Shown here piece after piece: positions 5,714 through 55,691 of a DNA stretch of 64,000 bases. Made by a program: the position numbers and the translations under genes. Source of the DNA: Escherichia phage P896; the sequence record OL451225.1; one strand, given 5' to 3'. How positions within the stretch are numbered: position 1 is the first letter of the stretch; each line of letters opens with the position of its first letter. The notes below the pieces were generated by a model. The model worked only from the letters and a program-made list of their open reading frames with translations. It did not search any database and was not told the DNA's origin.

Positions 5714-6652
5714 ATGGCAACTGAATCATACAACCCGAAACAATTAAAAGATGCAATCCTTCGTCGTCTTGGTGCTCCAATCACGAATATCGAAGTCACG
5801 ACCGAACAGGTTTATGATTGTATCCAGCGCGCATTAGAATTATATGGCGAATATCATTATAATGGATATAACAAAGGTTATCAGGCTTTTTATATTGGTC
5901 ATGATGAAGTTTCACAGCAGAAATTCCGTGACGGTGTTTTCGATTTAAAAGGTCGTAATATTTTTGCAGTAACGCAGATTATTCGTACTAACGTCGGTTC
6001 ATTAACTTCGATGGATGGTCAAGCAACATATCCATGGTTCACAGATTTCGTTCTGGGGCTGGCTGGTATTAATGGCGGAATGGGTAGCTCGTGTAATAGT
6101 TTTGGTCCAAATGCTTTTGGTGCAGACCTTGGTTATTTTACACAGCTTATGCAATATCGTTCGATGATGCAAGACCTGATGGTTCCGCTGCCGGATTACT
6201 GGTATAATGACGATACTGAACAACTTAAAATTATGGGCAACTTCCGTCAGGGAGATGTTATTGTAATTGAAGTTTACACCAAATCCTTTAATGGTGTTGA
6301 TGCAATGGCCAGCAATACTGCGGGTTACGGTTATGCTTCAGGTGATTGTTCAAATCCATGGAATGCTGGTGCACAGTGGGATAATCCGGCGCGCAGAATA
6401 GGCGGTATGAGAGCCGGTGAGGACCTCGGACTTCAAGATGGTGCATACAACAACCGTTGGGTGAAAGACTATGCCACGGCGCTCGTTAAGGAAGTTAACG
6501 GCAACGTATTGGCTAAACACCAGGGAATGATGATGCCAGGTGGTGTCACAGTTGATGGTGTCCGTTTAATCGAAGAAGCTCGCATGGAAAAAGAACGTCT
6601 TCGCGAAGAACTTGACCTGCTGGATGCACCGACTCCTATATTGGTGGGCTAA
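5714..6652 (+). CDS. 13: neck protein gp13
   Basis: 312 aa; position and size as T4 gp13; AGAGGA RBS. Confidence 0.85.
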
Positions 6653-51490: not shown

Positions 51491-51781
51491 TCATTTGCAA
51501 CGTTCCTCTTTTAGTTCAGAACGATAATAACATAACATACCTTTTTGGTCACGTACATATCTTTTTACATCATTCATCCAAATCCTGAATTCTTGCGATG
51601 CTTCAAAAGGCATACCAACCCAGGCTTGACCATCAATTACCTTCACTTCCCATTGCTGCTTATAATCAGCCAATGCAACAGGCCAATTAGGATGAACTTG
51701 GATTGTGGGCTCCACAACGGGCTTCTGGGCGCATGAAACGAGTCCAATAGCCAAACATACTGCCATGATAGATTTCATCAT
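51491..51781 (-). CDS. pseT.2: o-spanin (outer-membrane lipoprotein, Rz1-like)
   Basis: 96 aa; signal peptide and lipobox LVSC; Pro-rich periplasmic domain with Cys; ATGA-coupled to the i-spanin gene. Confidence 0.75.
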   Translation of the reverse strand: MMKSIMAVCLAIGLVSCAQKPVVEPTIQVHPNWPVALADYKQQWEVKVIDGQAWVGMPFEASQEFRIWMNDVKRYVRDQKGMLCYYRSELKEERCK

Positions 51782-52131
51782 TTGGTGAGCTCCTGGAAGT
51801 CCTGGGCGAACTTATCAAAAGACTGATTAATCTGTTTTTCAACTAATTTAGGCTTCGCTGCCACAACCTTAGTACGTTTTGCATCTGCGCGAAGTTTATC
51901 ATTTTCCTTCTGCAGGTGTTCAACATATTCCTGGCGCTGTTGGTCAAGGAGATTAATTTGATTAACCTGGTCTTTTATTGATTGCAGATTTTTCGCATTA
52001 TCTTCTGCGACTTTGGTGACTTCCGCCACCGCTGTCTTGAGATTATCCACTTTTGCTTTTAGATAGAAACCACTACCAGCAGTTACTACCAGGGCGAGCA
52101 TAAGCCCTGTGGTGAGATTACTTATTTGCAT
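51778..52131 (-). CDS. pseT.3: i-spanin (inner-membrane spanin, Rz-like)
   Basis: 117 aa; N-terminal transmembrane helix, then coiled-coil-like charged domain. Confidence 0.75.
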   Translation of the reverse strand: MQISNLTTGLMLALVVTAGSGFYLKAKVDNLKTAVAEVTKVAEDNAKNLQSIKDQVNQINLLDQQRQEYVEHLQKENDKLRADAKRTKVVAAKPKLVEKQINQSFDKFAQDFQELTK

Positions 52132-52625
52132 AACTTGATGATTACCTCAACAATATCATCCTGGGATAAACCATTCAGGAGGATGTGATTTGTACTGTCA
52201 GATGCTGAAATGCGGAACTGATTACCAACTTCATCCGCCATATCATCCTGGGTTAACACTGGGTGTTTAATTCCCAGGCGGTGTTGAAGTGTCAGGGGTT
52301 CAACCACAACATAACAAACACATCCATTGATATGCACATTAGGTTGGGTCTGATTGATGAACACTTCTGCATCATATTTAACCAAATGGTTCTTTAAGAA
52401 GTCAACCATTTCAGGAACAGATTCATGCAGTGCTTCTTTCCGCTCTTCTGATTTCTTATCACGATATTCTTTTTGTTTCGCCTTCAACTTATTATCAGAC
52501 GCCAGTTTCTTTCTTAAGTCAGTAAGGAACCCAACATTTTTGGAACCTTTATAAACATAGATTCCGTCATGGCGGTCACCATATACATCAACAATCATTT
52601 CATTTGAAATCAGTTGCATATTCAT
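52122..52625 (-). CDS. alc: Alc, inhibitor of host transcription
   Basis: Start at MNMQLISNEMIVDVYGDRHDGIYVYKGSKN with GAGGA RBS; 167 aa; position between spanins and rnlA. Confidence 0.8.
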   Translation of the reverse strand: MNMQLISNEMIVDVYGDRHDGIYVYKGSKNVGFLTDLRKKLASDNKLKAKQKEYRDKKSEERKEALHESVPEMVDFLKNHLVKYDAEVFINQTQPNVHINGCVCYVVVEPLTLQHRLGIKHPVLTQDDMADEVGNQFRISASDSTNHILLNGLSQDDIVEVIIKLCK

Positions 52626-52638
52626 AATATTTTCCTCA

Positions 52639-52872
52639 TTAGTAGCGGTTGTAACCTCTAGGACCAAAAGAGTTGGCACCCAGGCGTTCATCTTTCTTTT
52701 TGGCTCTTGCTCTAAACCCAGAATCACCTGTTTGAGCTTTCAGTTCTTTTAACAATTTGGCCTTCAGGTCAGTAATGAAACCAATCCGGCGGTCTCCCTT
52801 GTAGACATAGATTCCGTCATTACTGTCACCATATGCCTGTGTAACTCTTTCATTTGTAATTAAGTTTAACAT
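52639..52872 (-). CDS. small protein paralogous to the Alc N-terminal region
   Basis: 77 aa MLNLITNERVTQAYGDSNDGIYVYKGDRRIGFITDLKAKL...; GAGGA RBS and its own early promoter. Confidence 0.65.
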   Translation of the reverse strand: MLNLITNERVTQAYGDSNDGIYVYKGDRRIGFITDLKAKLLKELKAQTGDSGFRARAKKKDERLGANSFGPRGYNRY

Positions 52873-52933
52873 GTTTTAGTCCTCATCAGTAGTTGATGGA
52901 ACCATTATGTATAGAAAGAAGGGGCTTGTACAC
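52873..52933 (-). repeat. early promoter + 5'UTR cassette, family B copy 1
   Basis: GTGTAC (52928-52933), 18 bp, CATAAT (52904-52909), leader GGTTCCATCAACTACTGATGAGGA; the -35 overlaps a GGGGcttgtacaCCCC hairpin. Confidence 0.55.
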
Positions 52934-52942
52934 CCCTTTTTA

Positions 52943-54079
52943 TTATTCAGGAAGGATTACTTCCGCTTGGTAGTCCGACGGAATGTAAAGTTTATGATTT
53001 TTAAGGAAAACTTTATTGATTTGAGCAATCGTTTGTTCGGTTTCCTGGGGGCGTTGATAGGTGTTCATTAATACGGAGAACAATCCCGGGTACGGTTTAC
53101 ACAACTCTTGACCTTTAATCGCAAACTCGCGACGGTCTTTTCCTGCCAGTTGTTTCTGGGCGTCAAGCAACAATCCCAGCGTATTGGACAGATAATCCAG
53201 ATGTACAATGGTAAAGGCATTAACTTTTTCGCGAGCATAATCATCACCAGTAAACATGGCAATAACATCATCAGCCCCGCCGGCAACAACAACTTCAAAC
53301 AAACGCTCATTATTATTAATGGAGTCTTTAGTATGGTGCAGAGCACAATACCATTCTGTTTTCAGCTTGAACTTCTGACCACTTGCCAGCTCGTAGACGA
53401 AGCCTTCAATCTCTTTCATACCACGAACATTCTCAATGCTCACCAGGTCATATGCTTCAACCAGGAAAGGACGGAGTGCAGCATCTTTGAACAGTTCCTG
53501 GTATGGGATATATTCGCCAGTTTCATTATGACGAACGTTCAGTAAAATCAGGTCACGTTCCTGGTAAGGCAAAACAATGCGGTTGGTTGGTGCAACATAT
53601 TCCATATTGCATGCATAACCAGCTTCAGTGATTTCAGTCACACGAGCCCTGAACGCTTCACGGTGCGGTTGTTTAAACACCTGCAGAGATTCAGCAGCTT
53701 GGGAACTTTTAATCGACCCTTTGGATTTAAAAGCAATATTAGTCTGGTCCATATAAGTAGAAACCAAGCTACCATCAGCTTTTGCAGTAACCAGGACAAC
53801 TTCATCAAGGTTAAGGTCCATGGTCATTGGGTTCTCACCCAGATTAAAGAATTTTTCCATAGGACGGGCAGCAATGCGAACTGGACCATTGTCATCCATT
53901 TCAAACATAATGCCGCGGCACTCCAGTGCGTCATCAAGAAGCCAATCACTATAGGAAGCATAGTTATAGCTAAAGATGCGGAACTTAGTTTCAAATGGAG
54001 AAACAAAATCCGTATAGAAAAACTTACCTTTATCGGATTCGGCGCAAAGCTTCATTAAGTTATCATATAATTCAATCAT
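52943..54079 (-). CDS. rnlA: RNA ligase 1 (RnlA)
   Basis: 378 aa; ...FRIFSYNYASYSDWLLDDALECRGIMFEMD...; adenylylation motif KADGSL. Confidence 0.9.
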   Translation of the reverse strand: MIELYDNLMKLCAESDKGKFFYTDFVSPFETKFRIFSYNYASYSDWLLDDALECRGIMFEMDDNGPVRIAARPMEKFFNLGENPMTMDLNLDEVVLVTAKADGSLVSTYMDQTNIAFKSKGSIKSSQAAESLQVFKQPHREAFRARVTEITEAGYACNMEYVAPTNRIVLPYQERDLILLNVRHNETGEYIPYQELFKDAALRPFLVEAYDLVSIENVRGMKEIEGFVYELASGQKFKLKTEWYCALHHTKDSINNNERLFEVVVAGGADDVIAMFTGDDYAREKVNAFTIVHLDYLSNTLGLLLDAQKQLAGKDRREFAIKGQELCKPYPGLFSVLMNTYQRPQETEQTIAQINKVFLKNHKLYIPSDYQAEVILPE

Positions 54080-54486
54080 TTCTTCACCTTATGTTGGTAA
54101 TTCCACGGGGGATTAAAAAGCTTGATGAACATCGGCTCTTCCAGAGACATCGTTTCGACTGACATCGTACCAAGTTCATTGGTCATTGACAGATTGAAAC
54201 ATTGTCGTGCATAGAATACCACCTTTTTACCTTCTTGTAAAGCTTCATGTATCATCCGGGATTTGTTTGAATCACTCGTCTGTTCGATTCGGTTAATTGC
54301 AGTCCGGTAATAGTTGATACGCTTCTTAAGGTTGTTCGTCTTACCAATATACACTAGTTCATCATCAACCGAAATAGCATAGATAACATTTTTCTTATTT
54401 GCGAGAGTAAGGATAGGGATTTTACCATCGACTAACTCCAACTCCGCGTATTTTATAAAACTGTATTCATCAGCGATTTGTTTCAT
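54076..54486 (-). CDS. denA: endonuclease II (DenA)
   Basis: Start at MKQIADEYSFIKY (track ORF is TTG-extended by 2 codons); GIY-YIG-like IYAISVDDELVYIGKT; 136 aa. Confidence 0.85.
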   Translation of the reverse strand: MKQIADEYSFIKYAELELVDGKIPILTLANKKNVIYAISVDDELVYIGKTNNLKKRINYYRTAINRIEQTSDSNKSRMIHEALQEGKKVVFYARQCFNLSMTNELGTMSVETMSLEEPMFIKLFNPPWNYQHKVKK

Positions 54487-54495
54487 GGGCAAAAA

Positions 54496-54512: not shown

Positions 54513-55691
54513 TTATAGATATTTACGGAAACCAGCAAGAACATTCTCATCGACGTCATTGTCAATCTGGGCTACCAGGTAAGCAGACAACTCAACTTCT
54601 TGCGGTGCAGATTGCACATTATCAGAGTTAAGATATTCACGAATCCATGGAATCGGGTGCTTAGTAGATTCTAACACGATTTCACAAGGGAGACCGCATT
54701 GCTTCATACGAGAAACTGTCAGGTAATCGATGAAGCAGTTAAGAATCTCGACGCTCAACCCAGGGAGTCCACCATCTTTAAACAGATGTACGGCCCATTC
54801 TTTTTCCTGGCGATTAACTTCCATGAAAATAGCTGCGGCTTCTGCTTCGCATTCGTGAGCGATTTTAACCCATTCGTCACCGTCAACACCAGTCTGCAGC
54901 TGACGAAGAATATATTGGGTCCCCTTAAGGTGGAGCTGTTCATCACGGGCGATGAACTTCATTATCTTCGCATTACCTTCCATGATTTCCATGTTCTTAT
55001 GGAAGTTGAAAGTACATGCGAAAGATACATAAAAACGAATAGCTTCCAGGGCGTTAATAACATGCAGGCAGAGATAAAGAGACTTCATCAATGCTCGTTT
55101 GGCGATAGCTTCTTGTTTGATAGCTCGTTCCAAACGTTCGTCCGCTTCGGGAGTTTCTTTGGCCAGTTCAACAAAAGCAATCTGGTTTTGCCATTGACGA
55201 GTTTTATTCAGAACATCATCATAGTAATGACCAATGGATTCTGCGCGCTTCATGATTGCATCATCTAACAGGATTTCGTCGAATACCTTCGCCGGGTCCG
55301 TATAGAGATTTCGCATGATGTGCGTATAAGAACGAGAGTGAATTGTCTCGCTGAATGTCCAGGTCTGAATCCATGTATCAAGGCTCGGGTCAGAAACTAA
55401 TGCGGCTAATGCTGCAGCTGGAGCACGCCCCTGGATACTATCCAGAAGTGATTGGTATTTCAGGTTGTTGGTAAAAATATTTTGTTGATGTTCAGGAAGC
55501 TTATTAAATTGGGCTCCATCCATCATCAGGTTTACTTCCTCTGGTCGCCAGAAGAATGATAATTGCTTTTCTGTTAATTCTTCGAAAACTTTATGGCGCT
55601 GGATATCATAACGGGCGATGCCCAATCCTGAGCCAAAAAACATAGGCTCGGCTAAAACATCCACTGGAGTGGTATTAAAAACTGTACTCAT
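54513..55691 (-). CDS. nrdB: ribonucleotide reductase beta subunit (NrdB), uninterrupted
   Basis: 392 aa, single ORF; size as spliced T4 NrdB. Confidence 0.9.
   Translation of the reverse strand: MSTVFNTTPVDVLAEPMFFGSGLGIARYDIQRHKVFEELTEKQLSFFWRPEEVNLMMDGAQFNKLPEHQQNIFTNNLKYQSLLDSIQGRAPAAALAALVSDPSLDTWIQTWTFSETIHSRSYTHIMRNLYTDPAKVFDEILLDDAIMKRAESIGHYYDDVLNKTRQWQNQIAFVELAKETPEADERLERAIKQEAIAKRALMKSLYLCLHVINALEAIRFYVSFACTFNFHKNMEIMEGNAKIMKFIARDEQLHLKGTQYILRQLQTGVDGDEWVKIAHECEAEAAAIFMEVNRQEKEWAVHLFKDGGLPGLSVEILNCFIDYLTVSRMKQCGLPCEIVLESTKHPIPWIREYLNSDNVQSAPQEVELSAYLVAQIDNDVDENVLAGFRKYL

Follow-up and report, generated by a model that had tools for sequence, protein, structure and literature searches.

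The mini-alc locus and its homology with alc

The subject of this analysis is mini-alc (alcb), a small gene on the minus strand at positions 52639-52872 of a 64,000 nucleotide (nt) stretch of Escherichia phage P896 (record OL451225.1; the whole of this stretch is referred to as the window), and its position and length correspond exactly to those of the open reading frame (ORF) described in the original prediction. According to the ORF list the gene starts with ATG, ends with TAA and specifies 77 amino acids (aa), and the Shine-Dalgarno (SD) sequence that had been ascribed to it, GAGGA, is present at 52880-52884 of the minus strand, 7 nt 5′ of the ATG. An Alc-homologous module encoded by codons 1-48 (52729-52872, minus strand), supported by BLASTP, Pfam ALC and an AlphaFold2 (AF2) model, is followed by a basic, Gly/Pro-rich tail of codons 49-77 (52642-52728, minus strand) which ends in RLGANSFGPRGYNRY. 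The full-length paralog alc represents the downstream cistron (52122-52625, minus strand), which begins 13 nt 3′ of mini-alc with an ATG at 52625 and specifies a 167 aa protein (MNMQLIS...) that matches Pfam ALC with 171.8 bits across residues 1-166. The surrounding region matches Shigella phage SP18 at 98.8% over 2.2 kb, and 32 further records of Gaprivervirus (Tevenvirinae, T4-like) match it at 91-99%.

The claim that the first 40 or so residues of mini-Alc parallel the N-terminus of Alc was borne out by BLASTP against the resident Alc (28/62 identities, E 7e-17) and by Pfam, where mini-Alc passes the gathering threshold of PF17527 (ALC) with 42.5 bits against a cut-off of 25 (E 7.3e-11), the match being confined to profile positions 3-62 of 177 (mini residues 2-59) and thus falling short of full length. 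The sequence YGD-x-x-DGIYVYKG is common to both proteins (mini residues 14-26, Alc residues 15-27) and is followed by a basic helix in each, as had been noted. In a 26-sequence alignment that spans the Alc proteins of many phage lineages, all invariant N-terminal positions (M1, I6, G16, D20, G21, I22 and G32) are kept in the mini proteins, and D35 and L36 of mini-Alc are also conserved (alignment A3); the likeness is therefore not one of low-complexity sequence, the doubt that had accompanied the original prediction. At the DNA level homology between the two genes runs from the 5′ leader, through the SD region, to approximately codon 48 (local score 92-99, as compared to 26.5 +/- 4 and a maximum of 41 for shuffles; aligned leaders CTACTGATGAGGA and CTACTAATGAGGA), which agrees with the proposed paralogy with the Alc N-terminal region through partial local duplication. 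Homology of the tail to alc beyond codon 48 was considered and could not be substantiated, as mini nt 142-234 aligned with alc nt 142-330 no better than shuffles (p 0.74), and the BLASTP match reaches mini residue 63 solely through a K/E-rich stretch; the tail (codons 49-77) is, on these alignments, not demonstrably derived from Alc.

A promoter scan located a T4-type early-promoter-like site upstream of mini-alc (52904-52933, minus strand), comprising a -35 element GTGTACA, 17-18 nt and a -10 element CATAAT, followed by the leader GGTTCCATCAACTACTGAT. The description of this region as an early promoter cassette is accurate as a statement on the sequence, and the window contains seven further cassettes of this kind, all of them on the minus strand (61337-61308, 60213-60184, 51387-51358, 48096-48068, 44495-44466, 35574-35545 and 19166-19137). 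The cassettes are built from an A-tract, G(T/G)TTACA or GTGTACA, 17-18 nt, (C/T)ATAAT, a leader, GAGGA or GGAG, and ATG; their leaders are of two types, ..TTCCATCAACTACTGAT.. or ..TTCCATACTGAGTTAACAA.., and that of mini-alc agrees with the leader at 61313-61289 in 24 of 25 bases. A terminator scan identified a hairpin, AAGGGGTGTACAAGCCCCTT, followed by CTTTCT, directly after the rnlA stop codon (52919-52938, minus strand), its loop holding the -35 element; the RNA fold of -11.7 kcal/mol (z = -1.9) is a weak signal, and the hairpin is invariant in relatives. When 19 related loci were combined with the window to give 20 Gaprivervirus sequences, the approximately 70 nt upstream of mini-alc, encompassing hairpin, promoter, leader and SD, were nearly invariant in 20/20 loci, the neighbouring genes differing at 11-28% of synonymous sites. 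The SD sequence GAGGA is kept in 19/20 relatives and reads GCGGA in locus L014.

No promoter or terminator was found between mini-alc and alc, and at their junction (52633-52641, minus strand) the TAA of mini-alc (52639-52641) is separated by a single base from the SD of alc, GAGGA (52633-52637). The same applies in all 20 Gaprivervirus loci and in loci L025 and L028 of two more distant lineages, where the mini-alc stop codon lies either 1 nt before the alc SD (TAA-T-GAGGA) or inside it (TAT-TGA-GG). Owing to the lack of an intervening promoter or terminator and the location of the stop codon at the alc SD, the two genes look like one bicistronic unit, and to judge from this layout they are probably translationally coupled. 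The proposal that mini-alc is expressed separately from alc was thus not upheld.

As regards its origin, phages JS98 and T2 carry a T4-type early promoter and a GAGGA leader directly before alc. In the window it is mini-alc that follows this promoter, and alc has behind mini-alc a leader and SD copy of its own, which doubles as the last codons of mini-Alc. The ATG-to-ATG distance is 247 nt, and the arrangement fits a partial tandem duplication of the leader, the SD and approximately 50-60 codons, with clear duplication homology starting at about the transcribed leader (GGTT...CTACTNATGAGGA). In DNA alignments the tail could be traced neither to alc nor to the promoter region. Duplication of the whole promoter, one copy of which then decayed into the tail, is no more than a possibility, given that in-register identity upstream of the leader is marginal (24/58, p 0.026). 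The mini-Alc N-module shares 61% identity with T2 Alc and 52% with the resident Alc, a gap that amounts to 4 residues in 46; import from a T4/T2-type alc was nevertheless discarded in preference to local duplication, as the DNA aligns better with the resident alc (score 99 vs 81) and the DGIYVY signature is clade-specific. The mini-Alc of L028 is 62% identical to its own Alc as compared to 52-60% to others, and suggestive signs of concerted evolution or gene conversion between the copies are found only in L028 and in short leader and junction sequences.

Conservation, selection and distribution

Mini-Alc is 100% identical to the product of alcb of Shigella phage SP18 (ADO19581.1), which occupies the same position between rnlA and alc(a) and whose GenBank note of 2010 reads 'similar to N-terminal region of bacteriophage JS98 Alc'; mini-alc was therefore already known as an annotation. 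The gene is also recorded as VR7ORF243c and in RefSeq as 'inhibitor of host transcription', and mini-Alc was matched end to end (residues 1-77, E 2.9e-53) by PHROG 17715, a 77-position family bearing the same designation. All of these entries represent the same gene, under a name that is based on similarity and borrowed from full-length Alc, and no paper on alca/alcb or on a second Alc-like gene was found in the searchable library. With both the gene and its resemblance to Alc in GenBank since 2010 the discovery is a modest one, and what the present analysis adds is evidence of the gene being real, old, constrained and modular.

The mini-alc ORF is intact, at 77 codons, in 20/20 Gaprivervirus loci, which together carry 15 distinct nucleotide versions, and third codon positions account for 17 of its 23 variable sites. 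Its dN/dS (pairwise Nei-Gojobori) is 0.115, as compared to 0.104 for alc, 0.074 for rnlA and 0.096 for pseT.3, and the most constrained part is the tail (codons 46-77), with a dN/dS of 0.044 against 0.30 for residues 1-45. As synonymous divergence in the tail is high (pS 0.18), it is the protein that is constrained, rather than a signal that overlaps with it. By these measures, together with its SD and promoter cassette, mini-alc is a genuine coding gene under purifying selection, and relatives of P896 also possess this ORF. The N-terminal 47 codons of alc (window 52485-52625) occur as two deeply diverged alleles across loci L001-L019 (MNMQLISNEMIVDVYGD...SKNVGFL and MDMQLISNEMIVNEYGD...TKKIGLM), with a pS of 0.315 vs 0.092 in the rest of alc; these alleles are unlinked to the mini-alc variants, and the pattern looks like a recombination mosaic.

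By tblastn, the Alc N-module was detected in 795 of 50,697 phage records (830 places, of which the best 60 rows were inspected), and a second copy of the module is present in all 33 Gaprivervirus records. A word-indexed search of 5.8 billion proteins returned two mini-Alc clusters, both of the Gaprivervirus type, while an exhaustive profile search of 1.84 billion representatives yielded only 39 Alc-family clusters, four of them short. Among these four, the Gaprivervirus cluster and P0051 (78 aa) are true mini-Alcs, the latter being encoded on a metagenomic contig of the L025 lineage in the order rnlA, early promoter, mini-alc, alc. A third lineage (L028, L029) encodes a 77 aa mini-Alc at the same place; the two metagenomic lineages are known from short contigs. 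The location between rnlA and alc, the early promoter and the stop codon at the alc SD are shared by the window, the 20 Gaprivervirus loci, L025, L028 and L029. A sister lineage (L030-L032) lacks mini-alc and has the promoter directly before alc, its Alc C-domain being 77% identical to that of the window.

Between the window and L025 identity amounts to 57% for RnlA, 79% for Alc and 45% for mini-Alc, and synonymous sites are saturated (pS 0.77). The mini-Alcs of the three lineages are collinear without gaps and share the core YG..DGIY..KG..R[IV]GF[IL][ST]DL, followed by GF after a glycine-rich break and by a C-terminal motif, R-[LH]-G-x-NSFGP-x3-N-[KR]-[FY], which reads RLGANSFGPRGYNRY in the window, RLGRNSFGPDGLNKF in L025 and RHGANSFGPGTENKF in L028. 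In the tail as a whole (GF..[RK]......R[LH]G.NSFGP...N[KR][FY]), 10 of the last 16 positions are kept between lineages in which mini-Alc is 45% identical. No known match to the NSFGP motif was found, nor was the motif found in any other early protein of the window, where the one other NSFGP lies in an unrelated plus-strand frame at 6095. The common layout, the collinear proteins and the tail motif in three deep lineages imply that the duplication predates the genus and that the tail is a selected feature; on these comparisons mini-alc is not a recent accident of phage P896, but a gene common to three deeply diverged lineages, to which a conserved tail of non-Alc sequence has been added. N-module identity between lineages is 44-58% for mini-Alc and 59-69% for Alc, and within the Alc proteins of the clade that bears mini-alc the C-domain changes more slowly than the N-module, contrary to the trend in the family as a whole.

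Two further short proteins were examined as independent mini-Alcs and rejected, both being without the tail motif. The 63 aa P0046 (G28_00229, Escherichia phage vB_EcoM-G28) is identical to T4-type Alc over residues 1-48 and out of frame thereafter, suggestive of a sequencing error or of a frameshift mutation in alc, while the 61 aa P0059 is the first piece of an alc that is split into 61 and 111 aa. The latter lies at 2894-3431 of L026 (metagenome contig SRR10769897_2867), where the N-piece and C-piece of the alc homolog are located between rnlA and spanin-like genes; Alc may be split naturally in this case, or the split may result from a frameshift or from an error of assembly. The only disrupted mini-Alc seen is P0002 (75 aa, from a single 9.3-kb ENA contig), which is of the Gaprivervirus type but runs out of frame beyond residue 55, with ..FRALFWSPGLQPLLMRKILWICN in place of the tail; it reflects a deletion or frameshift in one metagenomic assembly.

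Domain architecture and a possible role beside Alc

On cytosine DNA, Alc causes E. coli RNA polymerase to terminate at discrete sites during elongation; the recombinant protein is insoluble and no Alc structure is available (PMC2988021, PMC2939025, PMC8076793). T4 Alc binds the host RNA polymerase, and paf mutations of rpoB (R368, P372) prevent its action (PMC2939025, PMC2988021). To relate mini-Alc to this protein single-chain AF2 models were used, that of Alc being based on the 26-sequence alignment. The Alc model is confident (pLDDT 92.4, pTM 0.69) and comprises an N-module (residues 1-33; helix 8-15, hairpin 23-33), a 51-residue helix (34-84) and an alpha/beta C-domain (87-166). The long helix is K/E-rich with a net charge of +3.9, in keeping with a spacer rather than a coiled coil, and in the model the C-terminal domain resembles the DNA-binding domain of MotA, a T4 protein in which an N-terminal sigma-binding domain is joined to a C-terminal double-wing DNA-binding domain. 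As the N-module has only 33 residues, alignments of 80-110 residues must presumably involve the C-domain. The model of mini-Alc repeats the N-module (helix 7-14, hairpin 22-32) and the start of the long helix, with a pLDDT of 90-92 over residues 11-40, and is without a C-domain. Past approximately residue 45 the helix becomes uncertain, and from residue 51 the mean pLDDT is approximately 50 or lower, with segments 52-54, 65-71 and 74-77 below 50; the basic tail (net charge approximately +5, pI 10.5) is probably disordered according to the model. A fold search of the PDB with the mini-Alc model gave no match (all E > 4), no solved structure is related to Alc, and NCBIfam contains no Alc model.

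In comparison with T4 Alc (PF17527), mini-Alc is homologous over its approximately 48 N-terminal residues, in which the invariant positions are kept, and it shares the neighbourhood, the early promoter and the type of ribosome binding site. It lacks, however, some two thirds of Alc, namely most of the 51-residue helix and the whole of the C-domain including the near-invariant FINxTQPNV, the columns of which it leaves blank in the 26-sequence alignment, and carries an unrelated conserved tail instead, and for this reason transcription termination by mini-Alc should not be assumed. To judge from the models, the part of Alc that faces the DNA is most likely the MotA-like C-domain, which is missing from mini-Alc.

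Taking the homology, the reality of the gene, the selection acting on it, the operon layout and the domain architecture as established, the following course of events can be proposed. The 5′ end of alc (leader, ribosome binding site and approximately 48 codons) would have undergone tandem duplication in a common ancestor of Gaprivervirus and two or more uncultured sister lineages, leaving mini-alc as a functional early gene. The early promoter that originally served alc would now give rise to a mini-alc/alc message in which mini-alc comes first. Its product would be a stand-alone Alc N-module, i.e. a small helix and a beta-hairpin capped by the start of the long helix, in which a conserved basic tail has taken the place of the charged spacer helix and the MotA-like C-domain. 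The MotA-like C-domain suggests a two-module logic, and by analogy Alc would most plausibly dock through its N-module and face the DNA with its C-domain; the most plausible docking site of the shared module would be the host RNA polymerase near beta R368/P372. Mini-Alc could then take up the site of Alc while bringing no C-terminal effector or sensor domain to it, and would thereby tune, time or complement the action of Alc. MicroProteins, of which the eukaryotic Id and LITTLE ZIPPER types are examples, are truncated paralogs that compete with the parent protein, and the same logic would apply here, as mini-Alc is a small single module derived from a duplicated and truncated multi-domain regulator with the interaction module kept and the effector module gone; the conserved extra tail and the co-cistronic expression are atypical of microProteins. 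That mini-Alc is a stand-alone copy of the Alc docking module which competes with or assists Alc on the host RNA polymerase is the reading we favour, albeit tentatively and as somewhat short of probable.

Several points weigh against this assignment. Rather than contacting RNA polymerase, the N-module could equally self-associate or bind something else. An antagonist made together with its target from one message is not an obvious design, and, as the main difficulty, the strong conservation of the tail (dN/dS 0.044, and across lineages) implies a function of its own beyond simple competition. Moreover, the mini-Alc N-module has diverged faster than that of Alc, so that its target surface may have shifted, no co-variation of the mini-Alc and Alc N-module variants was found in the 20 genomes, and the mini-Alc model as a whole is only moderately confident (pLDDT 71.8).

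Alternatively, mini-Alc may be a partner subunit that, instead of competing for RNA polymerase, forms hetero-oligomers with Alc through self-association of the N-module and the amphipathic start of the helix; Alc would be poisoned in this way, or the complex would gain the tail motif. Coupled and probably near-stoichiometric synthesis from one message would suit such a subunit, as would the conservation in both mini-Alc and Alc of hydrophobic residues at i, i+4 and i+8 of the helix start (L36, L40/41, L44) and the reversed divergence of the Alc N-module and C-domain in the mini-alc-bearing clade. However, the AF2 model of Alc is a confident monomer with a spacer-like charged helix, and no co-variation between the alleles of the two proteins was seen in the 20 genomes, and we regard a partner subunit as unlikely. 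A similarly doubtful alternative places an independent job in the basic tail, for instance nucleic-acid or host-protein binding or a part in unf nucleoid unfolding, with the N-module as a mere folded carrier or address. The tail is indeed the most constrained part of the protein in the genus, its motif outlasts the divergence between lineages and its charge and pI are high; a mere carrier, on the other hand, would have no need of all the Alc invariants that the N-module keeps, and neither the motif nor the mini-Alc model found a match that would point to such a job.

The selection data disfavour two simpler explanations. If mini-alc were a leader ORF that sets alc translation through coupling at the stop codon and SD, the peptide itself being unimportant, it would be clear why in every lineage its stop codon falls within the alc SD or 1 nt ahead of it, yet the purifying selection on its amino acids, with mostly third-position changes, and the survival of a protein motif through saturated synonymous divergence would be needless in a pure coupling device, making this explanation very improbable. 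The view of mini-alc as a decaying duplication remnant or an untranslated annotation artefact can draw on the disrupted tail of P0002 and on the truncated Alc N-pieces that arise by frameshift elsewhere (the 63 aa product of G28, and 61 + 111 aa in L026), but is scarcely credible for an ORF of constant length (77 or 78 aa) that is intact in 20/20 genomes and three deep lineages, under purifying selection and furnished with a canonical SD and a conserved promoter.

A more elaborate form of the docking proposal takes into account the DNA chemistry of these phages. Gaprivervirus is reported to be the one genus of Tevenvirinae that lacks dCMP hydroxymethylase while retaining Alc, DenA, DenB and dCTPase (PMC8056088, PMC12115623), and DNA of its member VR7 was reported in a BREX study to contain modified but unglycosylated cytosines (PMC6326788). 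In agreement with the reports of a genus without the hydroxymethylcytosine pathway in which alc, denA and gene 56 are kept, the SP18 record (14000-40000) has no annotated gene 42 or beta-gt in the uvsX-imm-43 region and no alpha-gt downstream of gene 47. Mini-Alc might in this setting be a separation-of-function Alc, a microProtein-like regulator which docks on RNA polymerase through the N-module and makes use of a new linear motif in its NSFGP tail, thereby re-tuning the discrimination of host and phage DNA by Alc for a different cytosine modification, a suggestion that we consider a long shot.

Alc terminates transcription on cytosine DNA and spares modified phage DNA, and a naturally selected stand-alone N-module represents a ready-made reagent for establishing which of its ends contacts the polymerase. 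Binding of mini-Alc to RNA polymerase at the paf site would identify the N-module as the docking end and assign DNA sensing to the MotA-like C-domain; a lack of binding would indicate the reverse. Mini-Alc also illustrates how small regulators can be made from larger ones by partial tandem duplication, with a new conserved C-terminal peptide motif appended.

Neighbouring genes and related observations

The genes surrounding mini-alc and alc are all located on the minus strand, with nrdB (54513-55691), denA (54076-54492) and rnlA (52943-54079) upstream, the last of these being the immediate neighbour of mini-alc, and pseT.3 (51778-52131) and pseT.2 (51491-51781) following alc in that order. A 201 aa GTG-initiated ORF (52122-52727, minus strand) extends alc upstream over the mini-alc tail in another frame, and alc has been annotated with such a 5′ extension (188-201 aa) in CJ20, P8, pEC-M719-6WT.2, P0003 and P0004. 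This extension is almost certainly a mis-called start, as an SD and ATG are present at 52625 and the resulting MNMQ is the start of Alc homologs in most other lineages. In SP18 a tandem duplication is also found for soca/socb.

Alc-like modules were encountered in other settings as well. P0063 (175 aa, L027 198-725) and P0064 join an Alc-like N-module and helix to an unrelated low-complexity C-terminal region, and the Alc N-module therefore occurs with other C-termini; the L027 contig also carries genes for a dCMP deaminase and a WYL-domain protein. A Foldseek search of BFVD retrieved Alc-like folds in distant phages, namely C9DFY7 of Delftia phage PhiW-14 (E 1.8e-4, 10% identity), a phage known for its hypermodified thymine, and E5DSQ6 of Aeromonas phage 65.
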